Shown here piece after piece: positions 6,809 through 58,447 of a stretch of DNA of 64,000 nt. How positions within the stretch are numbered: position 1 is the first letter of the stretch; each line of letters starts with the position of its first letter. The notes under the pieces were generated by a model. The model was not told the DNA's origin. It saw only the letters and a list, made by a program, of their open reading frames with translations, and ran no database searches. The position numbers were made by a program, and so were the translations under genes. The stretch lies in assembly GCA_000092065.1 (NCBI GenBank), contig CP000597.1, one strand, 5' to 3'. This DNA is from Ostreococcus lucimarinus (taxonomy: Eukaryota).

Positions 6809-6913
6809 CAAAAAAAATAAAAAAAATAATACCCGACCCCTGAGGGGTCACCTCAGATTTCGCGAGGGGTCGGCACTCGTCGCGAGGGGTCACTCGCACC
6901 GAATGTCCGAACC
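6809..6913 (+). promoter_or_regulatory. Intergenic block between TRAPPC5 and the hydrolase gene. It has an A-run (6809-6830), a CCCC-TGA-GGGG hairpin, three copies of GAGGGGTC (6842, 6865, 6885) and one copy of the recurrent motif CCGAATGTCCGAAC (6899-6913), about 280 bp upstream of ATG 7195
   Basis: direct reading; the motif recurs at 51717, 56041 and 58426. Confidence 0.45.
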
Positions 6914-7194
6914 ATACCCCCTCCTCACTGTTTGCCCTATACGCCCCCAGCGCGCGCGTCGGCGCCGGTCGGTCGGCGCCGCGTCGGCACCGCATCGGCG
7001 CCGCATCGGCGCCGCGTCGGCGCGCCATCGCGCCGCGCGCGCGACGACCGCGCGCGCGACGACGACGGCGACCGCGCGCGCGACGACGACGGCGACGACG
7101 CGAACGACGACGACGGCGCGCCGAATCGAATCGCGCGCGCCGTCGTCGTCGAACGAAGCATCGATCGACCGACCGGGACATCGATCGAACGACG

Positions 7195-8595
7195 ATGTTC
7201 GCGGCGTGCGCGCGCCGGGAGAAGACGCGCGGACGCGCGACGCGAGATCGAATCGACGCGCGCGTGGACGCGGTGGTGCGCGCGATGACGCGCGCGGACG
7301 CGACGGAGGAGGCGACGACGAGCGAGGGACGACGCGCGACGGCGGACGACGAACCGCTGACGCACGAGGGCGAGTGGCCGCGCGCGGAGGGAATGTCGCT
7401 GATCAATAAGGCTATATTTCAGGCGCCCGCGAGCTCGTACGGGGCGCGGTCGCACCCGTGGTCGCCGGCGCACTGCGCGAGGGTGCGGTCGGGGGCGGGG
7501 TACGAGTTTCCGTGCGTGTGGATCGCGTGCAAGCGCGCGCCGGCGGAGCGAGTCGTCATACACTGTCACGCGAACGCGTGCGATATCGGACACATACACT
7601 CGCTCTGCGCGCGAGACGCGGAGTGCTGGCGGGCGAACGTGCTGCTGGTGGAGTATCCGGGATACGGGACGTCGGAGGGCGTGGCGTACGAACGCGCGGT
7701 CGATCGACACGTCGCGGCGGCGTACGTGTACGTCACGGAAGAGTGTGGGGTGAATCCGCGAGACGTCGTAGTGCTCGGACGATCGCTCGGGACGGGACCG
7801 GCGACCAAGCTCGCGGCGGCGGTGGAGCGACTCGACGGCGCGCAGTTGGGCGGGGTGATTTTGCACTCCCCTTTCACGAGCGTGAAACAGGCTGGGTTAG
7901 TGCTTTTGGGGCAAATCGCGCACATTATGGATGATCGATGGGATAATCGCGAATGGGTGCGCGCGTATAAGGCGAGAACGCTCATCGTGCACGCGATCGA
8001 GGACGAAGTCGTGCCGTTTGCCCACGCCCAGGAGCTCGACGAAATCAGGCGCGCGGCGGGGCTACACTGCAAACTCCACTCCACGCACGGCACGCACAAC
8101 TATTTTTCCTATTACCGAGACTACTTGCAGCCGATATTGGAGTTCATCGATTCGAACATCAAGCCCGGGACAGGGGCACGCAAGCTCGCCCCGCTCGCCG
8201 ATCCGATTCCTCGGTGCGCGTTCTCCGAGGCGCAGGTCAGAAACATCATGGCCATGGTCAAGGCTCAGGTTCCGAACGAAGCGGAAGCGAACGTTCCGTT
8301 GGGTTTGCGATTTTACGGCATGGTGGATTCGGTCGGGGATACGATTTCCCCCGTCTCGACTTCGCCGACCAAGAGCGGGTTCTCGCGCTTTGGCTCGTCT
8401 GGCGCCTTGAGCACGGGCTCGTGGCCGCCCAAAAGCGGACGCACATCGCCGAAAACGCCACAGAAAACCGGCAAGTCGAAATCAATCTCACCCACATCCA
8501 CGATCGTGGGTGACATCGATCCCGAGAACGACGCAGACGACATGATTCTGACGCCGGGCGGCGCCAAGCCGAGGCTCACGCCTCTGCGCGGTTGA
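7195..8595 (+). CDS. alpha/beta-hydrolase, ABHD17/FAM108-like serine hydrolase
   Basis: GRSLGTG nucleophile elbow (GxSxG). VIHCHANACDIGHI...LLVEYPGYGTSEG...VVLGRSLGTGPATKLAA...ILHSPFTS...LIVHAIEDEVVPFAHAQEL matches the ABHD17 core. The true start may be the internal Met (MSLINKAIF...). Confidence 0.65.
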   Translation: MFAACARREKTRGRATRDRIDARVDAVVRAMTRADATEEATTSEGRRATADDEPLTHEGEWPRAEGMSLINKAIFQAPASSYGARSHPWSPAHCARVRSGAGYEFPCVWIACKRAPAERVVIHCHANACDIGHIHSLCARDAECWRANVLLVEYPGYGTSEGVAYERAVDRHVAAAYVYVTEECGVNPRDVVVLGRSLGTGPATKLAAAVERLDGAQLGGVILHSPFTSVKQAGLVLLGQIAHIMDDRWDNREWVRAYKARTLIVHAIEDEVVPFAHAQELDEIRRAAGLHCKLHSTHGTHNYFSYYRDYLQPILEFIDSNIKPGTGARKLAPLADPIPRCAFSEAQVRNIMAMVKAQVPNEAEANVPLGLRFYGMVDSVGDTISPVSTSPTKSGFSRFGSSGALSTGSWPPKSGRTSPKTPQKTGKSKSISPTSTIVGDIDPENDADDMILTPGGAKPRLTPLRG

Positions 8596-8671
8596 GAATT
8601 TCTTCGTCTGTATATGTATCACAAGCGCGCGCGTGAAACTGTATGTTTATTTGTAATGATAATCTGACGTA

Positions 8672-9547: not shown

Positions 9548-9872
9548 CCTGGATTGGTTCTCGTCGAGTTTTCTACGTATTTACCGTGATTTAGAGCCAT
9601 GCGTGCCGAAATCGCGATTGCGTTTTGTCCAGCCTGCACACTTACGCACAAACTTAGTGCAGGGCGACTAACAGCATCGCACATAACTTAAGTTCTCGTC
9701 GAGTTTTCTACGTATTTACCGTGCTTTAGATCTATTAGTGCCGAAATCGCGAAAACCGTTTTGTCCAGCCTGCACACTTACGCGTGGGTTGACGACTCTG
9801 CTCCACGACTTCGATTACACGAGTGGAGTGAGTGCGTGCGTGACTACAGAAAAACAACGCGTGGTAAATGAA

Positions 9873-12800
9873 TTAGTTGCCGCGGCGCTGAGCGCCGCGG
9901 AAACCGCCGCCGCGATCGCCGCGATCGTAATCGGCGTCGCGACGGCGGAACTGACGCTGGCGAAACGCGTCTCGCTCGTCGAGGATGCGGAATAAACCGC
10001 CCACGGCGTCGACGATGTTTTCGCTGGCGTCCGGAAGTGGTTTGCGAGGAGCCATGACTTTGAAAGCCAGCGCGGCATCGATCTCGCGACGGACGTCGGT
10101 GAGTAGATCCATGGTATCGGCGCACTGCGAATCGATGACGATCCAGTCGTCGAGCATGGCTCGGTGAGAGGTGGTTCGCTTGTCGCCGTCATCAGACGCG
10201 CCATCGGCGTCGCTCGACGACGCGAGTTCGCCGGATTCGTTCAATAGTCCCGCTTCGGGCGCCTTCGATGCCGTGGCGGCGTCATCACCATCCAGAAAGT
10301 CTCGCTTGGAGAGCTCGTGACCGCCGAGGAGCATGAGCTGCTCGGGGCGCATCGCCGTGACGTCTCGCAAGAACACTTGCGAGCTGAGCATCATCTCTCG
10401 ATACAAGAACCATCGAGGAAGAGGCGTGCGGTCGCGCGGTGGTTTGCGATGGAAAGCTACGCTCGAGGGGTGTAATCCGGCGTGGTCCTCGGTGCGCGTT
10501 CGCAGGGTGCCAAAGTTGCCAAACTGCCGCCGAGCCGCGATGTTCCCGGGGAGTCCTGCCGCCCAAACCGCGGTGAAGAGCGATTCGTTGGCGGCGTTAT
10601 AGTTCACCGATGCATCGTATCGCAGCGTCTTCTTACTCATCGATCGCCCGTCCAAATCGTAATCTTGAACCAATCCGATACGGTTTAGCTCGTGCAAGAG
10701 CTGCGAGCGAACCGAAGTGATGGTGTTCAAAGCGGCGATGGATATGAAATTATCGCTCGCCCAACGCCGAGCGCCGTCCCAGCCTTGATCGTACTGGATA
10801 GTCTGGAACGCATCGTACGCGCGAACAGTGGCGAGTAAATCTGAAGTCGCGCAGAACGATTGTCTGATTTGCCGCGCCTCGTCTCGCATCCCCGGAGGGA
10901 CGTAAAACGGATCCCGAGAGCTGAAACACGCCGCAGCGGTGAGCACTGGATCGAGACATTTCATCACTGCTCCCATGATGAGCATCCGTCCAGTCCCAGG
11001 ATCGAGCGGGAGGATGGACAGCAATCGTCCCATGGGCGTGAGGACTTCGCCTCCAGACGCCTCGTTCGTCTTGATGGCGCCGAGTTTAAAAAGCCTATCC
11101 ATCGCATACTCCACAGTCTCGTCCGACGGAGGGTCCATGGCTTTGGACAAGAAGTGTTGTACTCCGGTGTTGGTCATCGAGCACGTCTGCAAACAAGTCG
11201 CTTCGAGCGCCGTGCGCTGGATCTCTGGCGTCGGTCGTTCCGCCATGGCGTGCAGAGTACCGTGAGAATATATTCGGTAGCACGATCCAGGGGCGACACG
11301 TCCAGCGCGACCGGTTCGTTGTGTCGCGCTTGCGCGCGACGTTCCGACCGTGCCCATCGTCGACATTCCGCTCTCGGCGTTCCAAGACATCTCTCGTACC
11401 AGACCGCTGTCCACCACGGCGAGCACGTCGTTGATGGTGACAGAAGATTCGGCAATGTTCGTCGCTAATATGACCTTCACCACGCCATCTGGCGCCGGTA
11501 TGAACACTTTTTGTTGCTCTTCTTGAGGAATCGTCGAATGAAGTGGTATAACGTTCAACTTCTCGTAAAGCTCGGGGTCGGTGGTCTCCTCCAGTATCGC
11601 CATCGCCGACTTTATCTCATCCCAACCGGGTAGGAAGCACAAGATACTACCCTTACGTCCGGCGTCGGTTTCGATAGCCGCGACGTGTTTAGCGACTTCG
11701 GCGAGGAGTTGAATCGTGAGTTCGCTCACTTCCTTCGTTTCGTTCGCGCCGAATCGCTTACCAGCTCCACTCTTGCCCATGGACGACTCGCCCGTGCGCG
11801 CGTCGCGCATAGCCACCGCTCGACGAAGAGCACGCACGCGAGACGACGCTCGCATGCGACGAGGTGACATTCCTCGATTATTTTCGACGTCTTCCAACTT
11901 CATCGCCATGTCTTCGAGCGCAGGGTCGACGTCGTCGACGTCGTCGTCGTCATCGTCGACATCGTCTTCGTCCTCAGACACTTCCACTTCCACCTGCTCG
12001 TCCTCCGCCGCCGATATGCGCTCAAGTTGCTGCGCAGCGATTTCTTCGGCTTCGGCTTCCTCGAGTTCGCGCTGCAACGCGCGATCCTGCGCCGCGAGCA
12101 AATCTTTCGCAAGCTTTTTCAATCGACTTGGGATTTCTCGCTTACGAGCGTTGAATTCCTCCTCGCTTACAAGACTTTCATCTTCGACTTCGAGCTCGCC
12201 TCCACCGTCTAGCATATCCTCGAGGTGGACGATCTCTACAGGCCATCGCGGTTTCGTCGGTACGCTCATCAAAGGTACCTTTTCCTGCGTATCTTCACCC
12301 GCAAAGTAGTCACTGAACGATTCCGCGTCGAGCGTCGCGCTCATCAAAACGACTCGCAAATCCGGTCGAGTGGTGATGAGTTCGCGGAGCAAGACGAGCA
12401 GAAAGTCGGTGTTAATGTCGCGCTCGTGAACTTCGTCGATCATAACGTGCGAGATACCTTCCAAATTTTGATCTCTCATGAGTCTGCGAAGTAAAACCCC
12501 GGTCGTGACGAATTCAATGTTCGCCGCGTCGCGCGGTGAATTACCGTGTAATCGCACGGCGAAACCCACCGAGTTCCCAATCGGTTCGTCGCGCTCCGCC
12601 GCGACGCGCTCAGCGACAGATATCGCGGCGATACGTCGTGGTTGGGTGACGATAATGCGCGTGTTCGGCCCTTCGCCTTGTTGGATGGCGTCTTCTAAGA
12701 TGTACTGCGGACACTGGGTCGATTTCCCGCTCCCCGTGCCTCCGCTCACGACGACCACTTGATGTGTTTGCAACGCTTTCACGAGATCTTCGCGAATGGC

Positions 12801-14498
12801 TTTGATGGGCAGCGCATCGCGAATTCTCTTCATCTCTGCTTGAGGGCTTTGCTCGTTCTCGACGGCTCTTCGCAATCGCTTTGCCTCTTCCTCGGCGTAT
12901 TCGCTATTCTCCGCCGCAACGCGTTCCGCCGCACGCGACTCGCGCGCAGCCTTGAGTATTTCTTCCGCTTTCGACGGTCCATCGGAGCTTTTACGCCATT
13001 TTGACTCTTGTCGCGCCGAAAACTTGGCCTCAAACTCCGCTTGTAATTCCACTAGCTCAGACATTCTACCGTCGTGTTCCTCGGGCGAACCCATGGCCTC
13101 GACGAGAATATCGATTCCTTTATCCGGTAACGCGGGCATTGACATCATTGATACGTGATTCGCAGGCGAGGCGTCGATGATTCGATTCAACTCTTCGAGC
13201 CGCCTCTCGCCGACGACAGCGGCGAGCGGTTCGCGGACCGCGTTGATTATTGCCTCGGCTTCGCTCGATGCTTTACTCGCACCTTTCCCACTTCCCTCGA
13301 GCTTCTTCCCACCATCAACGAGCATGCTAACTTCAGTGACGAAATTTCGCTGCTTTTGCGACGTCACCATGGACGGTCGCGTCGAATTCAGCATTTCCAA
13401 GAGCATCTGCGCCCTGTTCTTCTTCGCCTGTTGCGACTCCTTCGCTCGCTCCATGAGCATCTTACGCACGTCCGGTGGATCTTTGGGATTGATCCCGCAC
13501 TGCGTGAACTGTTCGTACAAATCTATCAGCGCCAGCGCCTGCGACTCTTTCTTCCCGAACGCCACCCCCGTGTTGACGAGTTCCACCGCGTCGTCCTCCA
13601 TCGCCGTCGCGTCCGCGGGCGTCGGTTGAATCGCCCCGTGCGGCACCACCGTCCTCACCGTCGTGATGAACGTCTGATCGTGCGCCGGTCCGTTCATCGT
13701 CGTCGACATTCTTTGCTTAAACAGCATTTTCATAGCCGCCTTGTGTAAAATATTCCGTACGTTCTGCCCGTCGACGCCGAGTCGCTCCTTGACGCCCTTC
13801 GCGAGTTGCCGCGTCATGATCGCTCGTCCGTTTTCCCCGTGCGTCACCACCGCCGCGGGCGGCGCTTTACTCGATCGTTTCCCTCCCCCTCTCGACTTCG
13901 TTCGCGCGTCCTCGCGTCCCTGCCGCCCCCCTCGTCCTCCCCGTCCGCCCCGTCCGCCGCGTCCTCCGCGCCCTCGTCCCCCGCCTCGCCCTCGACCGCC
14001 TCGCCCTCGACGCTCATCCCTCCCGCCGCCCTCCTCCGCGCGCGCCGCCGTCGCCGTCGCTTTCGCGCGCCCTTCCTTCGTCGCCCACGCGCCGTCGCGC
14101 GCGTTCCCGCGTCCCGGCGCGTTCGCGCGCGCGTCGCCGCTCGCGCGTCGCGTCCCGCCCGCGTCGCCGCTCGCGCGCGCGCGCGCCGTCGTCGTCGCGC
14201 GCGCCGCGGCGAATCGATCGAGCGCGTTCCGGACGCTTCTCGCGCTTCCCGCGCGCGCGACGACCGCGCACGCGCCGAGCGCGCGCCTCGGCGTCGCGCA
14301 CGCCGCCGGCGCGCGCGCGTCGACGCGCGCGCGCGCGCGCGCCGTCGCCGCGACGCGCATCGCCGCCAGCGCGCTCCGGCGCATGCGACCGCGGCGCGCT
14401 CGGGTCGACGCCGCCGGCGCGCGTCGCGCGCGTGTGCGGCGCCGAGGCGCGCGCGCGCGCGCGGCGCGCGGCCGCGCGGCGATGTCGCGTATGCGCAT
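9873..14498 (-). CDS. DEAH-box ATP-dependent RNA helicase (DHX36/DHX57-like) with RGG/Gly-Arg-rich tracts at both termini
   Basis: Uninterrupted 4.6 kb ORF. Helicase motifs GGTGSGKSTQ (I), DEVHER (II), MSATLD (III), FLPGWDEI, ATNIAESSVTI, QRTGRAGR (VI). N-terminal (GRGG)n and C-terminal RGDRGGGFRG. The first ~150 codons are Ala/Arg-rich, so the real start may be downstream of 14498. Confidence 0.8.
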   Translation of the reverse strand: MRIRDIAARPRAARARAPRRRTRARRAPAASTRARRGRMRRSALAAMRVAATARARARVDARAPAACATPRRALGACAVVARAGSARSVRNALDRFAAARATTTARARASGDAGGTRRASGDARANAPGRGNARDGAWATKEGRAKATATAARAEEGGGRDERRGRGGRGRGGGRGRGGRGGRGGRGGRGGRQGREDARTKSRGGGKRSSKAPPAAVVTHGENGRAIMTRQLAKGVKERLGVDGQNVRNILHKAAMKMLFKQRMSTTMNGPAHDQTFITTVRTVVPHGAIQPTPADATAMEDDAVELVNTGVAFGKKESQALALIDLYEQFTQCGINPKDPPDVRKMLMERAKESQQAKKNRAQMLLEMLNSTRPSMVTSQKQRNFVTEVSMLVDGGKKLEGSGKGASKASSEAEAIINAVREPLAAVVGERRLEELNRIIDASPANHVSMMSMPALPDKGIDILVEAMGSPEEHDGRMSELVELQAEFEAKFSARQESKWRKSSDGPSKAEEILKAARESRAAERVAAENSEYAEEEAKRLRRAVENEQSPQAEMKRIRDALPIKAIREDLVKALQTHQVVVVSGGTGSGKSTQCPQYILEDAIQQGEGPNTRIIVTQPRRIAAISVAERVAAERDEPIGNSVGFAVRLHGNSPRDAANIEFVTTGVLLRRLMRDQNLEGISHVMIDEVHERDINTDFLLVLLRELITTRPDLRVVLMSATLDAESFSDYFAGEDTQEKVPLMSVPTKPRWPVEIVHLEDMLDGGGELEVEDESLVSEEEFNARKREIPSRLKKLAKDLLAAQDRALQRELEEAEAEEIAAQQLERISAAEDEQVEVEVSEDEDDVDDDDDDVDDVDPALEDMAMKLEDVENNRGMSPRRMRASSRVRALRRAVAMRDARTGESSMGKSGAGKRFGANETKEVSELTIQLLAEVAKHVAAIETDAGRKGSILCFLPGWDEIKSAMAILEETTDPELYEKLNVIPLHSTIPQEEQQKVFIPAPDGVVKVILATNIAESSVTINDVLAVVDSGLVREMSWNAESGMSTMGTVGTSRASATQRTGRAGRVAPGSCYRIYSHGTLHAMAERPTPEIQRTALEATCLQTCSMTNTGVQHFLSKAMDPPSDETVEYAMDRLFKLGAIKTNEASGGEVLTPMGRLLSILPLDPGTGRMLIMGAVMKCLDPVLTAAACFSSRDPFYVPPGMRDEARQIRQSFCATSDLLATVRAYDAFQTIQYDQGWDGARRWASDNFISIAALNTITSVRSQLLHELNRIGLVQDYDLDGRSMSKKTLRYDASVNYNAANESLFTAVWAAGLPGNIAARRQFGNFGTLRTRTEDHAGLHPSSVAFHRKPPRDRTPLPRWFLYREMMLSSQVFLRDVTAMRPEQLMLLGGHELSKRDFLDGDDAATASKAPEAGLLNESGELASSSDADGASDDGDKRTTSHRAMLDDWIVIDSQCADTMDLLTDVRREIDAALAFKVMAPRKPLPDASENIVDAVGGLFRILDERDAFRQRQFRRRDADYDRGDRGGGFRGAQRRGN

Positions 14499-14835
14499 AC
14501 AGCGCGCGGTTGGTTTTCACGGTCGCGTCGCCCCCGATGCGGTTTACGTGCGCTTTGAAGGGTGCTCGATGTCCGATGAAAGTGCGCGGTGTGACGATAT
14601 ATGCGATGTTCGGACAAACGGCGCGCGCGCGCCGCGATTCGACGATTCGACGATTGGACGACGGGACGCGCGCGACGCGATCGTGATGATAAGTACGCGT
14701 TCGTCGTCGGTTACAACGCGAATAAAACGCGACGCCTCGAGGCGTCGCGCGTCGACGCGGGCGCGCGACGACGACGGCGGCGCGACGAGCGCGCGCGAGC
14801 GGCGCGACGAGCGCGCCGGTCGCGATGGACGGCGA

Positions 14836-34246: not shown

Positions 34247-34291
34247 GGCTATCGGCTATCGGCTATCGGCTATCGGCTATCGGCTATTGGC
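34247..34291. repeat. heptanucleotide microsatellite (GGCTATC)6 plus a degenerate unit. On the minus strand it begins with, and supplies, the TAG stop codon of the gene 34284..35894
   Basis: direct reading of 34247-34291. Confidence 0.9.
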
Positions 34292-35894
34292 TGTGGCTAC
34301 GGGCCGCGGCCCACATCGTGAACACCTCGCTCGGTTCGCCGAAATCTTTGGAGACGAACCCGGAGACGGCGGTCGGGGAGACGGAACCGCAAAACAGCAG
34401 GCGACCGCCGGGCCAGGGGTTGCCGGCGTACCGGCCGCGTAAGACCACGCGGGGAGGGCAGACGGGGACGGAACCGTCGCGCGCGTCGGAATCGTCGATG
34501 ACGTAGACGATGCCCTTGAGTTCAGCCTTGCCCAAGCCGTCTTCGAGGTGCGCGGTGATGGTTCGCGAAGAACGCGCGTCGACGTCGTCGTCGTCGGACG
34601 CGCGCGCGACGGCGTGCCAACCGCCCCGGTGAGCGCGGTCTCGAGTCGACACGAGGGGCTGGTAGTCGGGAGGAATCAAGAGCTTGAGCTTGAAGACGAC
34701 GGCGTCCTTCGGGTCGTACCTCGGGTCGGTTGGGTGAAGCGTGTTCGCGTAGAGACGTGGAACGTCGAACGCGTATCGAAATCCCCGGTAATTCCCATCC
34801 ATCGCGTTCGCCGTCGTCGGCGCGTCTGAAACGAGCGCGCGACGCTCGAGATCGCCCGTCGGACGGCCGCCGTGCGGATACGGACCGCCGCCGATGCGAG
34901 TGGGAGGGCATAAGTGGAACCCGTCGCTCGTAAACATCGCCGATAAAAGCGGGATCACGTGACACAGCTCGTGCGCCATTCCATAACTGTTCGATGCCCA
35001 CATCGCCGTGCGCGCGAGAGTCCAGTCCTGCGATGGACTTCCACTGCCGATCTTCATTAAATTTCCCACGACCTTCTCATTCTTCTTCCTCTTCAGTGAT
35101 ATTTGAGCCTCCATAGCGCGCGTAGAGTACGCCGACAGAACTTCGCACATCGCCGGAACGAGCCCTTTAAACCGAGCTTCAATCGCACTCAACATGTCTT
35201 CGCGCGTTCCGTTTTTCCATAACCGACGCAGGCCAGGGTCTTTCACCAACAGTTCTCGAATCAATAGCGGAATTATCGGCTTCGCTCGGTCGTCGAAAAC
35301 CGCGTCGTAGTCGTCCGACGGCCTCGTTCCGCGGGCTCCGGATTCCGAATCGCCGTCGGGATCGTCATAATCGCAGTGCGTCGGCGCCCAAGGCAGCGGT
35401 GGTACGGTCAACGCCTCGACCAAGCCCGCAAAGTTTTCGCGCTCGCTTTCGCGCGCCCGATCGAAATCGACCCCCCTCTCCCGCTCCGCCCGCTCGCTCT
35501 CGCGCTCCGGCTCGCGCGTTCTCGTCAGACACGCGACTTTCAACGCGTACTCGTACGCGCGCGCGTCGTCCCCGAGCTCTCGAAACGACGCTCCGACGTC
35601 GTCGGCTCGCGCCGTCGCCGCCGCCGTCGTCGCGCACGTCTTCAGGAACACCCCTCGCATCGTCCGTCGCGTCGACGTCGTCCCGTCCGCGCGTCCCGGA
35701 TGCCTCGCCAGCGCGCCTCGGCACGCGCGCGCCATCCTTCGCTCGTAGTGCGCGTCGTCGTCCGTCGCCGCGTCCGCGTACGCGCCGCATCGCGAGAACG
35801 CCGCGATCGTTCGCGCGTCCATCCACGGCAGGACGCAGTCCGCGAACACGCGCGTCGGGACGACGTCCTCGAGCGTCGTCGCGTCGCCCGTCAT
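34284..35894 (-). CDS. hypothetical protein with an F-box-like N-terminus (LEDVVPTRVFADCVLPWMDARTIAAFSRC) and an HExxH motif (MAHELCH)
   Basis: 1.6 kb codon-biased ORF. Motifs read directly; no family assignment. Confidence 0.5.
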   Translation of the reverse strand: MTGDATTLEDVVPTRVFADCVLPWMDARTIAAFSRCGAYADAATDDDAHYERRMARACRGALARHPGRADGTTSTRRTMRGVFLKTCATTAAATARADDVGASFRELGDDARAYEYALKVACLTRTREPERESERAERERGVDFDRARESERENFAGLVEALTVPPLPWAPTHCDYDDPDGDSESGARGTRPSDDYDAVFDDRAKPIIPLLIRELLVKDPGLRRLWKNGTREDMLSAIEARFKGLVPAMCEVLSAYSTRAMEAQISLKRKKNEKVVGNLMKIGSGSPSQDWTLARTAMWASNSYGMAHELCHVIPLLSAMFTSDGFHLCPPTRIGGGPYPHGGRPTGDLERRALVSDAPTTANAMDGNYRGFRYAFDVPRLYANTLHPTDPRYDPKDAVVFKLKLLIPPDYQPLVSTRDRAHRGGWHAVARASDDDDVDARSSRTITAHLEDGLGKAELKGIVYVIDDSDARDGSVPVCPPRVVLRGRYAGNPWPGGRLLFCGSVSPTAVSGFVSKDFGEPSEVFTMWAAARSHSQ

Positions 35895-46657: not shown

Positions 46658-46699
46658 GCGCGCTTTATTATTCACGAGGGTGACGGACGTTTCGCGAGT

Positions 46700-47896: not shown

Positions 47897-47934
47897 TCTA
47901 TTACTAGCTAAGCTACATCGCTCTCGCGATCCGT

Positions 47935-48850: not shown

Positions 48851-48877
48851 TCTGAATTCTGAATTCTGAATTCTGAA
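48851..48877. repeat. (TCTGAAT)4 heptamer microsatellite in the divergent promoter between 47935..48651 (-) and 48896..50515 (+)
   Basis: direct reading. Confidence 0.9.
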
Positions 48878-48895
48878 TCCGCGGCGATTCGGACG

Positions 48896-50515
48896 ATGCG
48901 CGAGCGACGGCTGGGGACGAGCGATGGGACGACGACGCGCGAGGACTTTGGGGCGGATCGATTGCTGATCGACGTGGCGAATTACGTCGTCGGGTACGAG
49001 ATCAAGTCGAGGGACGCGGTGAAGACGGCGAGGCACGCGATAATGGATTTCGTCGCGTGCGCGCTGCGGGGAGGAAGCGATCCGGGGTGCGCGAAATTAC
49101 TCGGACCGTGCGTGCCGGGAATCGAGTGCAAGCACGGAGCGCACGTGCCGGGGACGGAGTATTATCTCGATCCCGTGACGGCGACGTTTAACGCGACGAC
49201 GTGCGCGCGGTGGTTGGATTACAACGATTCGTTTTACGGCGCGGAGTGGGCGCATCCGAGCGACACGATTGGGGCGATTTTGAGCGTCAGCGAGTACGTC
49301 AGTCGATTGAGGAACGATCGCGGGCTGAGCGTGCTGAGCATGCGAGACGTCATCGTGGCGACGATCAAGGCGTACGAAATCGTCGGCGTGCTCGCGCTCG
49401 AGAACTCGTTCAATCAGATTGGCGTCGATCACGGACTGTTGACTCGCGTCGCCGTGGCCGCAGTGACGACGTCCATGCTCGGTGGTGGGCGATTAGAGGT
49501 GATGTACGCCACTTCGCAGGCTTTCATCGACGGCAGCGGTTTGCGATGCTTCCGACATTACCCGTGCGCGGGGACGCGAAAGGGTTGGGCGGCGGGAGAT
49601 AACGCCGCCCGAGGCGTCACTTTAGCGTTGATGACGATGAGAGGCGAAATAGGATATCTTGGTGCGCTGTCAGCGCCGGTTTGGGGATTCAACGACGTGT
49701 TTTACCGGCGTCAAGACATCGTGCTCAAGCGAGACTTTGGGGAATTCGTCATGGAAAACGTCGTCTTCAAGCCGTCGTTTCCGAGCGAGATTCACGCTCA
49801 AACCGCCATCGAGGCCGCGTTTCGATTGCATCCGCAAGTCGTCCACCGCGTGGACGAGGTTCACAGCGTCGCGGTTCACACCACACGTAGCGCTGTACGA
49901 TGCATCGATAAGACCGGGCCGCTGAACGGGCCCGCGGATCGCGATCACTGCTTGCAGTACGCCGTCGCCGTCGCGCTCCTGTACGGGAATATGACATCAG
50001 ATCATTACGAAGACTCCGTGGCGAGCGACCCGCGAGTGGATGAAATGAGACGCAAAATTCTCATCGCAGAAAATCCACAATACAGCGCCGATTACGTTGA
50101 TCCAGATCGCCGTTCTTGTTCGAATTCGATTCAAGTGCACTTTAAGGATCGCACGAGCACGAACAAGTTTGAGGTCGAGTACCCAGTTGGACATCGTCGC
50201 AGAAGAATGGAGGGGTTTCCAGCGTTAGAAAAGAAGTTCATATCGTCTTTACACACAAAGTTTCCACCGGAGCGTGCGGGATTCATCTTTGAACGAGTCA
50301 CCGACGCGCAAATTTTCGACGCCTTGACACCGATGGACTTCATGGAATTGTTCAACGCCACGCCGCATCCCGTGCTCTTACCGCCGATGCGCGCGGCACC
50401 TGGAGTTTTTGATTACACTCCGATAGATAGTCGAGCGTCGACCCTAGTTCCTCGTCTCACGGATGGTACCGCAGAGACTCGAGCGGTGGGAGACGGCGCA
50501 GACGCGCGCGGTTAG
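48896..50515 (+). CDS. MmgE/PrpD family protein (2-methylcitrate dehydratase / cis-aconitate decarboxylase family)
   Basis: Full-length similarity to PrpD architecture (N-terminal helical domain ...DFVACALRGGSDPG...; C-terminal ...HSVAVHTTRSAV...). 539 aa is typical. Confidence 0.75.
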   Translation: MRERRLGTSDGTTTREDFGADRLLIDVANYVVGYEIKSRDAVKTARHAIMDFVACALRGGSDPGCAKLLGPCVPGIECKHGAHVPGTEYYLDPVTATFNATTCARWLDYNDSFYGAEWAHPSDTIGAILSVSEYVSRLRNDRGLSVLSMRDVIVATIKAYEIVGVLALENSFNQIGVDHGLLTRVAVAAVTTSMLGGGRLEVMYATSQAFIDGSGLRCFRHYPCAGTRKGWAAGDNAARGVTLALMTMRGEIGYLGALSAPVWGFNDVFYRRQDIVLKRDFGEFVMENVVFKPSFPSEIHAQTAIEAAFRLHPQVVHRVDEVHSVAVHTTRSAVRCIDKTGPLNGPADRDHCLQYAVAVALLYGNMTSDHYEDSVASDPRVDEMRRKILIAENPQYSADYVDPDRRSCSNSIQVHFKDRTSTNKFEVEYPVGHRRRRMEGFPALEKKFISSLHTKFPPERAGFIFERVTDAQIFDALTPMDFMELFNATPHPVLLPPMRAAPGVFDYTPIDSRASTLVPRLTDGTAETRAVGDGADARG

Positions 50516-50617
50516 CAACGCTTCGGCGACACCCCTTGTTGTAATGGTAGCATGAAACACGAACGCGAGCCGTCAGCGATTGAGTTTGCGCCAAGCAATC
50601 GAAACGACGCGATTTAG

Positions 50618-50654
50618 TGATGCGATTCAGTGATGCGATTCAGTGATGCGATGG
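50618..50654. repeat. 13-bp tandem repeat (GTGATGCGATTCA)x3 in the 3' region of the PrpD-family gene
   Basis: direct reading. Confidence 0.85.
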
Positions 50655-50788
50655 CTAAAAAACGATGAAGTAATGATCACTTCCGTGACAAGTCAGATAA
50701 CAACTCTGAAGCTCCTCGCTTTTTTCAGCGAGAGCGTAACTACCCTCCGCTAACGGCTAATAGTAATATCGTTCCTTAGGGTAAATAT

Positions 50789-51651
50789 TTACCCTTGGAC
50801 TTGGCGCTGGTCAACGGCGCACGCAGCTTCGGACGCCGGGCGGTGAGCCAAGAACGCGGAGCATTGCACTTGCTTGATGTTGTCGAAGCCAGCGACGCGG
50901 ACGTAGCATTCCGGGAAGCACTTGATGCAGGTGTTGATTTCCGCAATGACTTCATCCGGGTTTTGGCAGCCGTACATGGGGAGCTTCCACATAACCCAGT
51001 AACGGTTGTCGTAGTAACCGGCGTTGATGGAGGTGTCCATGTTCGCCCAGCCGTGGCCGTCGGTGTACGCGTGCGCGGAGTCTTCGAACTCGATGCACGG
51101 GGTCCAGCCGTTGTTCAACAAGTATTGCACTTGCTTGGAGATTTCGGCGTCGGAGAGCGGCGGCAAGAAGGAGAAGGTCTCGAACATCCTGCGTGACGAC
51201 GTAAAAACGAAGCGAAATCGGTCAGTACAGCGCTCGCGCGCGTCGTTCGGACCCTCGTCGGTGACCGAGTTAAAACCCTAAAACCCAATAACCCAGCGCG
51301 CGTTCCTGACCGCACGATCGCCGCCGAACGAGCCCTCGCGCGCACCCCCCACGCCGACCCCTCGCACCGCGATCGCGGGCGTTAAAACGTCGAAGAAGAA
51401 CTTTCTTCAACGAAATATCGCCCTCGCGGCGTCGTCGAGGCGCGCGCGCGCGCGCAGAGGTCGCGCAACGTTCGCGCGATGCGGCGCTATCCTCTCGCGA
51501 AAGATACGCGAAGGTTCGATCGATCGCGCGCGTTCACGTACTTGTTGCCGTGCGGGCGCCAGATCATCATGGACTTGGCGTTGGCGACCTTGCCGGTGGT
51601 GACGGCGACGGTCTTCGCGACTTGCGCGGAAGCTTGGGTGATGGCGGACAT
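50789..51651 (-). CDS. rbcS: RuBisCO small subunit, copy A (exon 1 51542..51651, intron 51189..51541, exon 2 50789..51188)
   Basis: Exon 2 = MFETFSFLPPLSDAEISKQVQYLLNNGWTPCIEFE...YYDNRYWVMWKLPMYGC...VRVAGFDNIKQVQ, canonical rbcS. Exon 1 (MSAITQASAQVAKTVAVTTGKVANAKSMMIWRPHGN) is a transit peptide plus the conserved MxxW...NK motif. GTACGT donor and ...CACGCAG acceptor rejoin ...GNK|MFETF in phase 2. Confidence 0.9.
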
Positions 51652-51716
51652 GATTGCGTGCGTGTGGATTAGTGCGGCGCGCGCGCCGCGCGCGCGCGTC
51701 GGGGCGGCGCGAGGTG

Positions 51717-51731
51717 CCGAATGTCCGAATC
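51717..51731 (+). promoter_or_regulatory. copy of the recurrent motif CCGAATGTCCGAATC, ~185 bp upstream of rbcS copy B ATG, in the shared divergent promoter of rbcS A/B
   Basis: direct reading. The same 13-mer core occurs at 6899, 56041 and 58426, all on the + strand. Confidence 0.4.
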
Positions 51732-51914
51732 ACGATCGCCCGCCCCTTAAAACGTATTCCAATCGTCTCTACAACTATATGATTTCGATTTTGACGGGAT
51801 AATCTCGACGAGATAAATTCGAGCGCGCGTTTTCGCGCGAATCGTGTGGATTTGCTGACTCGGTGCCGATCACGCGAGGGCGTCGGCACTTTCCAGCACG
51901 CTTATCTCGAAATC

Positions 51915-52806
51915 ATGTCCGCCATCACCCAAGCCTCCGCGCAAGTCGCGAAGACCGTCGCCGTCACCACCGGCAAGGTCGCCAACGCCAAGTCCATGAT
52001 GATCTGGCGCCCGCACGGCAACAAGTACGTGAACGCGCGCGCGCGACGGGACGCGAACGTAATCCGAAAAAGCGACGCGCGCGGATTGCTCGGCCGGTCG
52101 TGAAGAAGGGGTCTTCGAGGGGCGCGCGAGGGCGTCGTGACGCGCGCGATGAATGAAAAAGATGCCTGAAGTTTTTATGCATCGGATCGTCAGCGCGCGG
52201 TGGGCGTCGCGCGTCGACGCGAGCGTCGGCACGGGGTTCGAGTGAGCCCCCCCAGGGGGGAGGCCTCCGAGATCCATCGTAACCGCCTTCGGAGATTTCT
52301 TCTTTAATTTTCCTCGCGACGCGTGGTTGCGCGTTGAAATCGACGGAAAACGATGCACAGAATAATTACTGACCCGATTTCGCTTCGTTTTTACGTCGTC
52401 ACGCAGGATGTTCGAGACCTTCTCCTTCTTGCCGCCGCTCTCCGACGCTGAAATCTCCAAGCAAGTGCAATACTTGTTGAACAACGGCTGGACCCCGTGC
52501 ATCGAGTTCGAAGACTCCGCGCACGCGTACACCGACGGCCACGGCTGGGCGAACATGGACACCTCCATCAACGCCGGTTACTACGACAACCGTTACTGGG
52601 TTATGTGGAAGCTCCCCATGTACGGCTGCCAAAACCCGGATGAAGTCATTGCGGAAATCAACACCTGCATCAAGTGCTTCCCGGATTGCTACGTCCGCGT
52701 CGCTGGCTTCGACAACATCAAGCAAGTGCAATGCTCCGCGTTCTTGGCTCACCGCCCGGCGTCCGAAGCTGCGTGCGCCGTTGACCAGCGCCAAGTCCAA
52801 GGGTAA
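51915..52806 (+). CDS. rbcS: RuBisCO small subunit, copy B (exon 1 51915..52024, intron 52025..52406, exon 2 52407..52806)
   Basis: Same exon sequences as copy A (one Glu/Asp difference in exon 2), GTACGT donor, CACGCAG acceptor. Confidence 0.9.
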
Positions 52807-53417
52807 ACGTCTCGACGTTTCCTGCGAACGCCCGCGCGCGTCTGTAGACGCGCGCTGCCGCGGACTCACGCTCGTGTAGAGATGTAGTCCTATTGAATTA
52901 CATACGAAGACTTCACGTCACTTCACGCGTTAACGCTTCGCCCTCGCCCTCGCGCGTCGCGCATCTCCGGACGCTCTCTCTCCCTCTCGCGCGGACCGAC
53001 CGCCGCGCAGCACACCCGGTCGTAACCGTTCCATTTGACCGTTCCAATCCCTTCTCGAACGCGCGCGAAGATTTTCCGAGATCGAGGACTCGCCGCGGTT
53101 CGCGACTCAAGAAATCTAGATCACGCCGTGAGATCTTCGCCCGCCGTCGTTTCCGCCACACGTTTCCGCGCCGCCGGGCGAAAATGAGGCTTTAGGGTTT
53201 ACGCGCGTCGTATGGGCAAACAGTTCGCGAGCACTCTGCGTAGGCCCCCTGAAGGGGGCTTTTTCCTCTATTTTCTTACATACAGCTTACATAATTTATA
53301 ATACAGAGAAGATCCCATATAAAGTACATCACGAATACGAATACGAACGCCCTCACAACCCCCTGACGCGCGCGCCGCCGCGGCCGAGCGACATAATCGC
53401 ACGCGTATCTCGAGATC

Positions 53418-54537
53418 ATGTCTGCCATCACCCAAGCCTCCGCGCAAGTCGCGAAGACCGTCGCCGTCACCACCGGCAAGGTCGCCAACGCCAAGTCCAT
53501 GATGATCTGGCGCCCGCACGGCAACAAGTACGTATAGTTTACGACGTGTTTCGACGCGATCGCGCGCCGCGTCCGATCGCGCCGCATCCGACGCCCCGAG
53601 GGACGATCGTCGTCGTGTTCGCGCGCGTCCGCGCGCGCGTCGCCGACGCGATCGCGGTCGATCTCTTCGATGATTTTCATCGCATCGATCGCGACGCGCG
53701 AAAGCGGCGCGCGCGCAACGTGGACGCGTGCGAACCGTCGATCACGGCGCGGTCGCGGGGTGATCGGATAAGCGCGAAAACCCAAACGCGAAAACCCAAA
53801 CGGGAACCCGAGCGGGAATTTTCGGGTGTTTGCGTCGAACGGCGCGGCGTTCGACGATTTAGCGTGCGCGATGATTTGTGCATCGTCGAGTCGGGCGTCG
53901 AGACGTCGAGACGTCGTCGCCGCGCGCGCGGCGGGGTCGGTCGGCGCGCGGATCATCCGTAGATTATCATCGACCGGACGATCGGCCGTCGACCGACCTT
54001 TGAATGCTCGGCGCGGGAGGGTGTTTCGTACTCGGGTCGGACGCGGTCCACGAGCGACGTCACGGTTGGGCGAGCGTAGAAGACTCGCGCGAGCGCTGTA
54101 CTGACCGATTTCGCTTCGTTTTTACGTCGTCACGCAGGATGTTCGAGACCTTCTCCTTCTTGCCGCCGCTCTCCGACGCCGAAATCTCCAAGCAAGTGCA
54201 ATACTTGTTGAACAACGGCTGGACCCCGTGCATCGAGTTCGAAGACTCCGCGCACGCGTACACCGACGGCCACGGCTGGGCGAACATGGACACCTCCATC
54301 AACGCCGGTTACTACGACAACCGTTACTGGGTTATGTGGAAGCTCCCCATGTACGGCTGCCAAAACCCGGATGAAGTCATTGCGGAAATCAACACCTGCA
54401 TCAAGTGCTTCCCGGATTGCTACGTCCGCGTCGCTGGCTTCGACAACATCAAGCAAGTGCAATGCTCCGCGTTCTTGGCTCACCGCCCGGCGTCCGAAGC
54501 TGCGTGCGCCGTTGACCAGCGCCAAGTCCAAGGGTAA
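53418..54537 (+). CDS. rbcS: RuBisCO small subunit, copy C (exon 1 53418..53527, intron 53528..54137, exon 2 54138..54537)
   Basis: Exons identical to copy B apart from a synonymous change in codon 2. The intron is 610 nt and unrelated in sequence except for the last ~40 nt. Confidence 0.9.
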
Positions 54538-54695
54538 ACGTCTCGACGTTTCCTGCGAACGCCCGCGCAAGTCGACTCAACTCAGTATTATGAAGATTTT
54601 TTCCATTTGATTTACGTAGGAAATTGCTTTGTCTGTCATAATGAGATGCATACTTACATATTAAAATGTCCCCGAATTTCTCGACGCGACTCGGA

Positions 54696-55997
54696 TCAGC
54701 GAAGCTCGCCGAGCGCCGCACGCGAGAAGACTGCCCGTGTGCTCTCGTCGCCCGCGCATACCTCTGACGAACTCGAGTCGTCGGAATTTTTGCTGAAGTC
54801 TAATGGTAATGTCAGTTCTAAGTGTCTCTTCGCGCCTGAGTATTTGAATTTGAAATCAAACGTGCGTCGAGAACGTTCACGAAGCTCGCGCTTGCCCACG
54901 ACGGCGGCGCTCGGCGGCGTCCCGGTGGTTACGACCCAACTCCGCGCTCGCTCGACGTCTCGGAGCTGCATCGTCGCCAACTCGTCCTGGCTTAAAGGCT
55001 GAGCTGTGATGGGTTTATGATTCAACCAAACGTTCACGAGGAACGTCACGCGCTTAGACGACTGCGGCGTACCGCGCGCGAACTCACTCGGGGCGCCGTG
55101 CAAGAACCGTCCGTCAAATGTGATTTGCTTCCCCCACTTTGGCCACGAAACGACGCACTCGGTGATATCACCGCACACCCCGACGTCGCCGTTTTCGTAA
55201 TCACAATTCACCTTCGTCGGACGGTTCACGACCACCGTCGGCGTCCCTCCGTCGCAAAAGTACGTCACCGTGCCGAGTTGCGGATGCGCGTTGACGCCCG
55301 CGCCCTCGAGGGCGTAGTCTTTGTCCCAGTGCCACCCGATCTCATCACCCTCATCGATGACTTGCGTCCACCACTCGGCGCCCGATTTCGAGGGATCATA
55401 CCTCGCTCTCTCGTCTTCGTCGCGCGCGCCGGCGTCTCGTTCCGCGCGCGCCGCGGCTTCGCGCGTCGCCCTTCGAAACGTCTCTCGCGCTAAATACTCG
55501 AGCGCGCACCTCGGTTCGCTCTCGGCGTTCACCCAAAACGTCCTCCCACTCGACGTCCCGCTCGTCCTTCTCTTCCCTCTCGCATTTTTCGCCGTGTGCG
55601 CCGCCTCGCAATCCTTCGTCAACCGCCTCGCGTCGTCGTCGTCGAGCGCGTCTCGCCCCGCGAACGTCGTCGCGCTCGTCGTCTCGTACGTCAGGTATCG
55701 GTTCACTTCGCACGCGATTCGTCCGAGTTCATCCACCGCGAGTTCGAGCTCGGACGTCGCGCTCGCGTCGTCGTCGCTCTCGTCGCTCTCGTCGCTCTCG
55801 CTCTCGCTCTCGCTCTCGCTCGTCGTCGCCTCGCGCGCGTCGTTCGCGCGCCTCGTCCGTCGCGTCGTCATCCGCGCCTCGTCGTCGCGTCGTCGACGTC
55901 GCGCGTTCGCCGCCCCGCGTCGCGCGCGCCGGTCGCCCGACGCGCGACGGGCGTCGCGCGTTCGCCGCGTCGACGGCCGCCGGGCTCGAGCGCGCAA
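54696..55997 (-). CDS. hypothetical protein with a 2OG-Fe(II) oxygenase/cupin-like motif pattern (GWHWDKDY ... RFLHG ... R..F.VNVW) and an N-terminal (SE)n/(SDE)n acidic repeat
   Basis: 1.3 kb codon-biased ORF. HxD...H...R spacing read directly; family not assigned. Confidence 0.5.
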   Translation of the reverse strand: MRARARRPSTRRTRDARRASGDRRARRGAANARRRRRDDEARMTTRRTRRANDAREATTSESESESESDESDESDDDASATSELELAVDELGRIACEVNRYLTYETTSATTFAGRDALDDDDARRLTKDCEAAHTAKNARGKRRTSGTSSGRTFWVNAESEPRCALEYLARETFRRATREAAARAERDAGARDEDERARYDPSKSGAEWWTQVIDEGDEIGWHWDKDYALEGAGVNAHPQLGTVTYFCDGGTPTVVVNRPTKVNCDYENGDVGVCGDITECVVSWPKWGKQITFDGRFLHGAPSEFARGTPQSSKRVTFLVNVWLNHKPITAQPLSQDELATMQLRDVERARSWVVTTGTPPSAAVVGKRELRERSRRTFDFKFKYSGAKRHLELTLPLDFSKNSDDSSSSEVCAGDESTRAVFSRAALGELR

Positions 55998-56061
55998 GCG
56001 GACCCGAATACCACTAAAGCGTAGCGCTGTATACTCATACCCGAATGTCCGAACATCCGCG
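55993..56061 (+). repeat. ~70-bp dispersed repeat, copy 1 (ends with CCGAATGTCCGAACATCCGCG), ~240 bp upstream of the PiT gene ATG
   Basis: About 90% identical to 58377..58447: GCAAGCGGACCC(G/A)AATACCACTAAAGC(G/A)TAG..CT.TATACTCATA(C/T)CCGAATGTCCGAACATCCGCG. Confidence 0.8.
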
Positions 56062-56302
56062 TGAAAGTGCTACACTTTGTCAGGAAAATGTCGATTCACA
56101 GTCGATTCACAGTTGATGAACATTGCAACAAGTTGCAAAAATCGAGTTCGATTGGAACCAATCGCGTCTTCTTTCGAGGTTCACGAACCGTGAATTCGTT
56201 CCGCGAGGAATATTCTCGGAATCTCGCCTTTTCAAATTCCCGCGTGGGAATATGCGCAGTCGCCGCAAGAACACGTCGCGCGCCGTCTCGTCACGCACAA
56301 CG

Positions 56303-58052
56303 ATGAGCTCTTCGGATGCGCTCGCTCAAGCGTCCCGCCACCTTTTGGCCGGCGCTACTGAAACCAAGAGATTCGAATGGATCGTCGTTTGCGGCGGTTT
56401 CCTCGCCTTCTTCGCCGCCTTTGGCATCGGTACGCACACGATGCGCGCACTTTTTACCTTTCGCGTTCATAGGCTTTAATGACACGGCTTGGTCGCACAC
56501 GTGCGATTGGAGTGTATTAGAAGCATCACTGACGTCGTGCGATCAATCGTATTTACCTACAGGTGCCAACGACGTCGCGAATGCGTTCGCCACCTCTGTC
56601 GGGTCCGGCGCGTTGACCATTAAAAACGCTGTAGTCCTCGCCGCGATCTTTGAATTCTGTGGTGCCATGTTCATGGGCGGTCACGTCGTCAACACAATTC
56701 GCAAGGGCATTGCTAACCAGAAATGCTTCGCCGGTACCGGTGGTGCCAACGATCCCGGCCTCTTGATGTACGGCTGCCTATGCGTCATTTTTGCCGTCGC
56801 CATCTGGCTCGTCGTCGCATCTGCCTTCGAAATGGCCGTCTCCACGACGCACTCGTGCGTTGGTGGTATGATTGGAATGACTTTGGTCGCGCGTGGTAGC
56901 GAGTGTGTCATTTGGACCAAGAAAGCGGACGAATTCCCGTACGTCAAAGGCGTCGTCGCCGTCATCATCTCCTGGCTCTTGTCCCCGGTCATCTCTGGCG
57001 CCTTTGCGTTCGTCTTCTTCGTGACCCTGCGTACTCTCGTCATGCGTTCCGAACATTCTTATTCTCGTACTGCCGTCGCGTTCCCAGTGTTGCTTGCGTG
57101 CACTCTCATCATCAACATCTTCTTCATCGTGTACAAGGGCGCCAAGTTCCTTGAGCTCGACGACACACCGGTCGGTACGGCGTGCGCCATCGCGTTCGGC
57201 ATCGGCGGAGGATGTGGCATTGTTGCGTACTTCTTCGTTACCCCTTACATCCTCAAGACGACCGATGAGCTCTTCGAGAAGCAACAGCTCGAAAAGGCGG
57301 AGCGTGGTTCGGGCAAGAAGGCCGAAGAGAAGGTCGTCCGTCAACCGCGCGAGTATCCTGTCGGGGTCTTTGGCGCGCCGCGTCGCATGTGGTACGCTCT
57401 GCAAGATCATCTTGAATCTTCACTCACCCACAAGGCTGAAGACATTCTTGACGAAGACATGGCTGTATTGGCGATCCACGAAAACGCCGAAAAGTTTGAC
57501 GAAAAGACTGAACTTTGCATGCGATACTTGCAAATCCTCACCGCGTGCTGCGACTCGTTCGCGCACGGCGCCAACGATGTGGCCAACTCTATCGGTCCCT
57601 TCGCCTCTATGGTAGTCGTCTTCAAGAGCGGTAAAGTTTCGAAGGAAGCTGAAATGGGCGACGATTCATATTGGATTCTCGGTCTTGGCGCTGCCGGCAT
57701 CGTCTGTGGCCTCGCCTTGTACGGCTACAAGATTCTTCACGCTCTCGGTACCAAGATTGCCAAGCTCACCCCGAGTCGCGGTATCTGCATCGAGCTTGGT
57801 GCGGCTTGCGTCATCATCATGGGATCCCGTCTCGGCTGGCCGCTGTCTACCACTCACTGCCAAGTTGGTGCCACCGTCGGCGTCGCCCTACTCGAAGGCC
57901 GCAAGGGCATCAACTGGTTCATCATCGGTAAAACTGTGTTCGGCTGGATCATCACCCTCGTCATCGTCGGCTTCTCCACGGCGGCGTTCTTCGCACAAGG
58001 TGCCTACGCTCCGATGAAGAGCTACCCGTGCTACATCACAGGTAGTTGCTAA
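56303..58052 (+). CDS. PiT-family inorganic phosphate transporter (exon 1 56303..56429, intron 56430..56562, exon 2 56563..58052)
   Basis: Two PiT signature motifs GANDVANAF (at the exon junction) and HGANDVANSIGP, with about 10-12 TM segments. Exon 1 (MSSSDALAQASRHLLAGATETKRFEWIVVCGGFLAFFAAFGIG) lies in a different frame (ORF 56123..56479). GTACGC...CCTACAG intron (133 nt, phase 1) recreates ...AFGIGANDVANAF. Confidence 0.85.
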
Positions 58053-58376
58053 ATGGGCCCTCCTAGCTTACCCCCTCCCTAGGTTACCCCCGACGGAGTT
58101 ATTCTTTGAATACTCTCGGTGTTTTTCCCGCTATTGATAGCGATGAGATTCTCGACAAATTCGCGTTCAGTGGGGTCTGAAAATTTGCCGTCGCCCACGA
58201 GAGCGTCGAATTGCTCCGCCAACGTCCGTCGAATTGCTCCGCCAACGTCAGCGATGGCGCGCCTGTGCGAGAGAATTCAGACTCAACAATACTTCGCGCG
58301 CGCGCTGTTTTGGTTCCAACCGGAGCCGCACGGATCAATTGCACACCGCGTAATCGCCCTGAGTGGTATCGATACC

Positions 58377-58447
58377 ACGCAAGCGGACCCAAATACCACT
58401 AAAGCATAGTACTATATACTCATATCCGAATGTCCGAACATCCGCGC
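58377..58447 (+). repeat. ~70-bp dispersed repeat, copy 2, ~95 bp upstream of ORF 58542
   Basis: see copy 1. Confidence 0.8.

Follow-up and report, generated by a model that had tools for sequence, protein, structure and literature searches.

We find that a 13-nucleotide (nt) sequence, CCGAATGTCCGAA, recurs in promoter regions of a 64,000-nt stretch of Ostreococcus lucimarinus DNA (contig CP000597.1; this whole stretch is referred to as the window). The motif is probably a cis-regulatory promoter element, the putative recognition site of a sequence-specific DNA-binding protein. The base composition of the window is CG-rich (~64% G+C), and the product of its coding sequence at 48896-50515, a 2-methylcitrate dehydratase, is identical to XP_001422164.1 of Ostreococcus lucimarinus CCE9901. 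It is thus nuclear DNA, from a picoeukaryotic green alga whose intergenic regions are very short.

Recurrence and confinement to intergenic DNA

Throughout the window CCGAATGTCCGAA has four exact matches (6899, 51717, 56041 and 58426), all on the + strand. The chance expectation is 0.01, and none of 100 dinucleotide-preserving shuffles of the window reached four. A sequence-only reading of this DNA had described the recurrence, with C or T as the next base and a + strand ATG 100-300 bp downstream, and had judged it very unlikely to arise by chance. These statements hold: the base after the 13-mer is C at 6899, 56041 and 58426 and T at 51717, and all four copies lie 116-296 nt from a + strand ATG. 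The same reading had counted four recurrences; the motif is indeed over-represented, but the count overstates the independent events. Because 56041 and 58426 both fall in a duplicated 69-nt stretch (blocks E1 and E2), the window has only three independent occurrences, still far above chance.

The first copy (6899-6911) occupies a tandem intergenic region between the end of a TRAPP gene (6604) and the ATG of an alpha/beta hydrolase gene (7195). The second (51717-51729) lies in the divergent region that separates two rbcS genes, copy A (ATG 51650, - strand) and copy B (ATG 51915, + strand). The third (56041-56053), in E1, is upstream of a PHO4/PiT phosphate transporter gene (ATG 56303), and the fourth (58426-58438), in E2, is upstream of a CREG-barrel/HOZ-like gene (ATG 58542). 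The product of this last gene is a CREG-barrel protein whose relatives carry the annotation non-canonical heme oxygenase HOZ. Starts of - strand genes are found behind two of the copies, 67 nt from 51717 and 44-170 nt from 56041. Since both of these intergenic regions are divergent, "upstream of a + strand gene" is ambiguous for both copies.

A search allowing up to two mismatches adds two weaker - strand copies in promoter regions. The variant CCGAACGTCCGAA (2604-2616; one mismatch, no ATG) is in the region upstream of the cyclin-side gene, with the caveat that a long open reading frame (ORF) from ATG 2500 would span it; gene calls in the related locus L373 begin further downstream. The variant CCGTTTGTCCGAA, followed by CAT (14609-14621), lies 111 nt upstream of the ATG of a - strand DEAH helicase gene (9873-14498). 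Both variants also have a counterpart at the orthologous place in a related species.

We examined how the motif is distributed in a set of 191 kb from at least six Ostreococcus lineages, consisting of the window and L138, L139, L142, L144, L373, L374 (O. tauri) and L375. These loci were fetched via HOZ and hydrolase orthologs and were not chosen for the motif. Coding and intergenic DNA were separated by called genes and, for the window, by a codon-usage score. With up to two mismatches there are 15 matches (7 exact), every one of them outside coding DNA, in the 20% of the 191 kb that is intergenic (binomial probability 3e-11); orthologous sites being non-independent, the 15 matches represent ~9-10 independent loci. 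For comparison, 400 permuted 13-mers averaged 3.35 matches in coding DNA and 0.85 in intergenic DNA, and only 1 of the 400 reached 15 intergenic matches. Exact copies number 7, versus 0.005 for permuted motifs. Thus the motif is both over-represented and confined to non-coding DNA beside gene starts. We estimate one exact copy per ~27 kb and one relaxed copy per ~13 kb; by extrapolation from the 191 kb, a 13-Mb genome would carry from several hundred to about a thousand sites.

A metagenome scan with a 14-mer returned 120 loci, from which Mamiellales-like contigs were separated by their tetranucleotide signature. Most of the 120 were discarded as bacterial chance matches, for example in codons for the ferredoxin sequence CEPECPN. 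On the motif-selected contigs with an Ostreococcus-like signature, the motif is located between genes at no fewer than 11 of 13 loci, and the other cases place it at the extreme 5' end of over-extended ORFs. Every resolved instance occupies a tandem or divergent intergenic region, that is, one with at least one gene start. Many copies are in divergent promoters with no nearby 3' end; since divergent regions hold no 3' end, a role as terminator or in the 3' untranslated region (UTR) is excluded.

Conservation, unit structure and proposed mechanism

Orthologous promoters of related species keep the motif despite diverged flanks, which bears out the earlier suggestion of a shared promoter-region element. 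In the hydrolase promoter of L373 (92% amino acid (aa) ortholog) the exact 13-mer is found at -293 and both flanks have diverged, and in L375 (67% aa ortholog, 58% G+C) the TRAPP-hydrolase intergenic region carries CCAAATGTCCGAAC with its orientation kept. In the DEAH helicase promoter, CCGTTTGTCCGAACAT is unchanged between the window and L373. The cyclin-side intergenic region reads CCGAACGTCCGAA (-) in the window, CCGAGCGTCCGAA (-) in L373 and CCGAGTGTCCGAA (+) in L375. Outside the window, CGAATGTCCGATGAT is upstream of an 814-905 aa gene in L126, L132 and L138, and also in L139 (80% identity level), where the remainder of the promoter is unalignable. Conservation thus extends to the hydrolase, helicase and cyclin-side regions and the 814-905 aa gene. 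It does not extend to HOZ: the HOZ-upstream motif is absent in L138 and L142-144 and stands on the opposite strand in L139/L140, so sites also turn over. The rbcS copy at 51717 is identical in all close haplotypes and in L138 (96% HOZ species); the region is ~90% conserved overall, so its retention in L138 says little alone. Looking up the exact rbcS protein yielded nothing beyond close haplotypes of this locus.

The 13-mer spans 1.6 repeats of an 8-nt unit whose core is GTCCGA(A/T) (also GTCCGAA), arranged as overlapping units, CCGAA-TGT-CCGAA. We aligned 19 independent instances from the window, other Ostreococcus and Mamiellales-like contigs on the motif. Their flanks are unconserved except for a tendency to CAT(C) after the motif, and this continuation is the beginning of a third unit (CCGAATGT CCGAACAT CCG; the tandem form can also be written (GTCCGAAT)n). 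Head-to-tail arrays occur in promoters in L045, L018 and L063 (10 units between two divergent genes). The array in L007 reads CGAATGTCCGATTGTCCGATCGTGTCCGAATGTCCGAAC, and in L012 a second near-exact copy, CCGAATGTCCGAG, follows ~35 nt downstream of an exact copy. The majority of copies are isolated 1.6-unit sites and not arrays. Unit number also varies upstream of HOZ, where the window and L127 have CCGAATGTCCGAAC, most other haplotypes have CCGAATGTCCGAATGTCCGAAC and L383 has one extra unit, giving two to four or more units across haplotypes.

These features suggest how such an element may work. The recognised unit would be ~8 nt long with the core GTCCGA(A/T), and the 13-mer would present two overlapping units. 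A third unit (CAT CCG) or a longer array would allow one or more protein molecules or domains to bind side by side. The protein would be bound in short intergenic regions, typically 100-350 nt from the start codon, and would modulate transcription of the adjacent gene or genes, with either orientation usable. Genes next to the motif include rbcS, HOZ-like, ABHD17-like hydrolase, PiT, DEAH helicase, RPS14, ClpP and RibBA, and further Pho88, a Mei2-like RRM protein, KRI1, a kinase and a KH protein. This breadth, together with a density of one site per 13-27 kb, suggests a promoter factor in wide use rather than one dedicated to a single pathway, and such heterogeneous neighbours fit a broadly used factor at least as well as a small regulon.

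Several points weigh against a protein-bound promoter element. Protein binding and its effect on transcription are what we infer from sequence, and no match to a known transcription-factor motif was established. The genes adjacent to the motif have no evident common function. Wild haplotypes carry PiT without the E1 copy, and the variable unit number is also expected of a neutral microsatellite. The gene maps behind the coding/intergenic split are prokaryote-style gene calls and our own codon scoring. The HOZ promoter motif is absent in L138, the closest other species, and none was found in O. tauri (21 kb), L142 (16 kb) or L144 (13 kb). In O. tauri the hydrolase promoter has no match, but a gap of 20 N just upstream of the TRAPP-hydrolase intergenic region weakens this negative. 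Given these absences, the motif appears either to turn over quickly or to be used unevenly among species.

Competing explanations and structural variation

All four exact window copies point toward a + strand gene, as would a directional core-promoter or transcription-start-site-proximal element that positions RNA polymerase II in one orientation and at a fixed distance. In tandem intergenic regions the motif likewise points at the downstream gene in four independent loci (the hydrolase, HOZ, L116, and L139 at 12471), and the sequence TATATAC is found 14 nt upstream of the motif in E2. Nevertheless, a single orientation is not observed. In L123, where a tandem intergenic region has a sole gene start, the motif lies 64 nt upstream of that start and in antisense to it; the HOZ copy is reversed in L139/L140 and the cyclin-side copy is flipped in L375. 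From the L123 copy and these flips between species it follows that orientation relative to genes is not fixed, and the sequence-only reading is not supported in this respect: both orientations occur. The distance from motif to ATG, an indirect indication, varies from ~26 to 563 nt across instances, and from ~90 to 563 nt when measured to the ATG that the motif faces. The TATA-like stretch of E2 is replaced in L383, where the units are kept, and no such stretch exists at 6899 or 51717. Arrays of up to 10 units are also unsuited to a single positioning element. We consider this explanation unlikely, even as the best placed of the alternatives.

Another explanation holds the motif to be a microsatellite seed of 8 nt, (CCGAATGT)n, neutral and prone to slippage, that arises and persists where intergenic DNA is relaxed; the window copies would then stem from local duplication. 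The motif does comprise 1.6 units of an 8-mer, near-identical haplotypes differ in unit number, and one pair of window copies is a duplication. As in a microsatellite, head-to-tail units that vary in number are seen in the HOZ haplotypes and in the arrays of L045 and of the giant-virus contig L163 described below. This behaviour describes how copies grow; it does not explain the conservation of isolated copies. Base-for-base retention in orthologous promoters with diverged flanks is unexpected of a neutral seed, as is recurrence at many unrelated loci in several species amid unrelated flanks. Moreover, permuted 13-mers of the same composition do not pile up in intergenic DNA, and most copies are not arrays. 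A neutral origin is therefore improbable.

The duplicated blocks lie in a region of structural variation, which we followed by comparing near-identical environmental Ostreococcus contigs (L126-L128, L132-L136 and L383). E1 (55993-56061, + strand) is followed by ~95 nt of AT-rich sequence to ~56150, and the 5' edge of E2 (58378-58446, + strand) is the right-hand boundary of a PiT presence/absence polymorphism. Targeted blastn, used for flanks as generic repeat finding was swamped by CG-rich low-complexity sequence, shows that E1 and E2 are 91% identical over their 69 nt and that other pairs of copies share no flanks. Haplotypes L132-134 match the window across E1, PiT and E2. In L126 and L383 window positions 55995-58384 are missing entirely, and the PiT gene with them; the L126 junction joins 55995 to 58384. 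L127 and L128 have PiT and lack E1, an unrelated ~65-nt segment standing in its place. E1 therefore reads as a recent duplicate of E2 that PiT can dispense with, judging from these two haplotypes.

L135 and L136 diverge from the window upstream of 58246. A pogo-like DDE_1 transposase ORF (L135 526-1458; L136 1-825) is found there, directly upstream of the HOZ promoter, replacing PiT. As these two haplotypes carry a transposase ORF instead of PiT, the intergenic region upstream of HOZ is structurally changeable, a hot-spot of structural change.

This setting raises the idea that the motif derives from a mobile element, as a fragment or terminus, or marks a hot-spot of recombination or integration, used by the PiT segment, the pogo-like transposon and a giant virus. 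E1 and E2 flank the PiT presence/absence segment, the E2 edge is an indel boundary, L135 and L136 have the transposase ORF close upstream of E2, and the end of a giant-virus contig holds ~14 copies. Yet copies other than E1 and E2 share no flanks, and neither the E1 replacement nor the E2 edges show terminal inverted repeats or target-site duplications. The motif does not coincide with the indel boundary, which is 42-48 nt farther upstream, and L126 is not a simple E1 x E2 recombination product. Furthermore, the promoters of the hydrolase, rbcS and helicase genes keep their copies from one haplotype and species to another. We hold this idea to be highly improbable.

We also rejected a dispersed repeat or miniature inverted-repeat transposable element (MITE). 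Only E1 and E2 share 69 nt, the 19 aligned instances have no conserved flanks, and there are no terminal inverted repeats or target-site duplications. The motif does resemble such elements in occurring at many loci, with two window copies in a 69-nt duplicate near structural variants. It differs from them in its unshared flanks elsewhere and in the stability of its copies at orthologous positions. Because flanks are unrelated outside the E1/E2 pair, the motif does not form a dispersed repeat family, the finding that would have told against the sequence-only reading.

The least probable explanation, and an extremely unlikely one, is a role at the RNA level, as the start of an upstream ORF (uORF; ATG TCC GAA, Met-Ser-Glu) or as a 5' UTR element: the motif ATG has a purine at -3, would open uORFs of 9 codons at 51721 and 23 codons at 56045, and is where automated HOZ gene calls in other haplotypes start (452 aa), but the conserved variants CCGAACGTCCGAA, CCGAGTGTCCGAA and CCGTTTGTCCGAA (2604, 14609 and orthologs) have no ATG, the 8-nt indel between haplotypes alters the reading frame without consequence, both orientations relative to genes occur, and an Rfam scan of the whole window found no family at gathering score and hence no described structured RNA. 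Neither start codon nor frame is conserved, and the ATG-less variants together with the frame-shifting 8-nt indel make a uORF or leader function unlikely, and with it the 5' UTR role put forward by the earlier reading.

Public automated HOZ models (449-452 aa; proteins P0017 and P0018) begin at the motif's own ATG (window 58430). In the window and L127, the 8-nt unit indel shifts this ATG into another frame. Because of this shift of frame, the true HOZ start is most likely 58542 or later, and the 449-452 aa models are too long.

The PiT/PHO4 gene (56303-58052, intron ~56432-56540) is itself a presence/absence polymorphism among near-identical haplotypes. Its G+C content is ~55% versus 64%, and its codon usage is unrecognised by the coding score. 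All PiT-bearing haplotypes retain the proximal PiT promoter (56150-56303), and with it a perfect palindrome, GAATATTC, at 56208-56215, ~90 nt upstream of the PiT ATG. This palindrome fits the P1BS form GNATATNC, the PHR1/PSR1 phosphate-starvation element. The P1BS-type GAATATTC is more likely to regulate PiT than is the E1 motif.

Neighbouring sequences, viral arrays and wider significance

Three rbcS copies are located in 50789-54537, each with an intron after a short first exon: A (-, ATG 51650), B (+, ATG 51915) and C (+, ATG ~53418). Copies A and C share ~47 nt of 5' flank, and the motif starts just beyond the shared stretch. Short tandem repeats containing GATTCG (GCCGCGATTCGCCGCGATTCGCC; CGATTCGACGATTCGACGATTGG) and a (GAATTCT)n run are present in promoter regions (58449-58480, 14630-14655 and 48851-48880); GATTCG corresponds to the LUX-type site GATWCG. 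A 7-nt tandem repeat, (GGCTATC)n, at 34247-34290 marks the 5' end of a predicted - strand ORF (34284-35894). ARAGORN calls a 93-nt tRNA-Arg(TCG) at 5692-5784 (+), inside the 5' part of a - strand Rad51/AAA-like gene (4771-5871). This call is probably a false positive or an intron-containing tRNA, with no relation to the motif.

IMG/VR was scanned for the 14-mer. The matches are mostly chance ones inside phage genes, and two AT-rich contigs stand out, L163 (105 kb) and L175 (36 kb), with the identifiers IMGVR_UViG_3300046167_000859 and _000786. Both come from Joint Genome Institute (JGI) sample 3300046167, which also gave a 361-kb Ostreococcus contig (a near-complete chromosome). The two share a 350-nt contig end at 98.6% identity. 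The contig ends (L163 13760-14337; L175 9420-9795) carry ~14 copies of CCGAATGTCCGAA, TTTAGGG-type telomere-like repeats, telo-box-like AACCCTAAAC modules and AAAATTGA, the repeated module having the form ...TTATGT(A/T)CCGAATGTCCGAA(C/T)G...AACCCTAAAC.... The end of L163 also holds eleven tandem 18-mers, CCGAATGTCCGAACCGTA; extended into the start of its neighbour, one unit agrees with window 6898-6918 at 20 of 21 positions. L163 encodes a nucleocytoplasmic large DNA virus (NCLDV) major capsid protein (PF16903 and PF04451), an adenine methyltransferase-like ORF and a 1920-aa repeat protein. A search for relatives of the capsid protein matched the Pfam NCLDV capsid families and no named relatives. 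The array was not found in any other IMG/VR contig, and a single-protein scan found no PiT relatives in viral contigs.

The viral arrays are a lead and not a finding, and the array may be a single captured copy amplified by slippage. The combined idea that a promoter-binding protein of broad action (a general regulatory or insulator-like one), specific to Mamiellales, recognises the motif and that an algal giant virus has co-opted this site is, on present evidence, unlikely. If true, the viral copies could serve as a decoy for a host factor, as a tether to host chromatin or the transcription machinery, or as a terminal replication or packaging signal. Real host-factor sites in these arrays would make a rare case of a giant virus with host cis-regulatory sequence.

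Promoter elements known from the green lineage include the telo-box (AAACCCTA), the Evening Element (AAAATATCT) and P1BS (GNATATNC). Like them, the motif is short, confined to promoters, present at many genes, conserved between orthologs, found in either orientation and sometimes repeated. Unlike them, it is longer and more information-rich (13 nt, 8-nt units), and its sequence matches none of the three. Resemblances to AP2/DRE (CCGAC), LUX (GATWCG) and ANT-type sites are imperfect and tentative. The head-to-tail promoter arrays (L045, L007 and L012) and the variation in HOZ unit number are similar to slippage-grown homotypic clusters of transcription-factor sites; in contrast to such clusters, most copies of the motif are isolated 1.6-unit sites. 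In the TOC1 promoter of Ostreococcus the Evening Element AAAATATCT is reported to be functional, in work cited in PMC2850359.

A likeness in use is seen with the sites of the yeast general regulatory factors. In the manner of Rap1, Reb1, Abf1 and Tbf1 sites, the motif is long and specific and, within a compact genome, marks many promoters, though a minority, whose genes are unrelated in function. Rap1 and Tbf1 sites are found beside telomere repeats in yeast, and likewise the motif on the viral contigs stands beside telomere-type repeats. The yeast sites differ in organism and sequence, so that the likeness is an analogy of use and not of ancestry.

Ostreococcus, the smallest free-living eukaryote and a model of marine primary production, has few transcription factors and intergenic regions of ~200 nt. 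To our knowledge, its promoter code is almost entirely undescribed. In a literature search on Ostreococcus promoter motifs, the O. tauri telomere-to-telomere genome and prasinovirus infection, which did not cover the Ostreococcus phylogenetic footprinting of Piganeau et al. 2009, we found no paper with the sequence or describing the motif. As a putative docking site it has most likely not been described previously. Extrapolated from the 191 kb, this 13-nt high-information motif would mark perhaps 5-15% of promoters. It also offers a practical handle, being short enough for mutation in existing luciferase reporters and specific enough to capture the binding protein.

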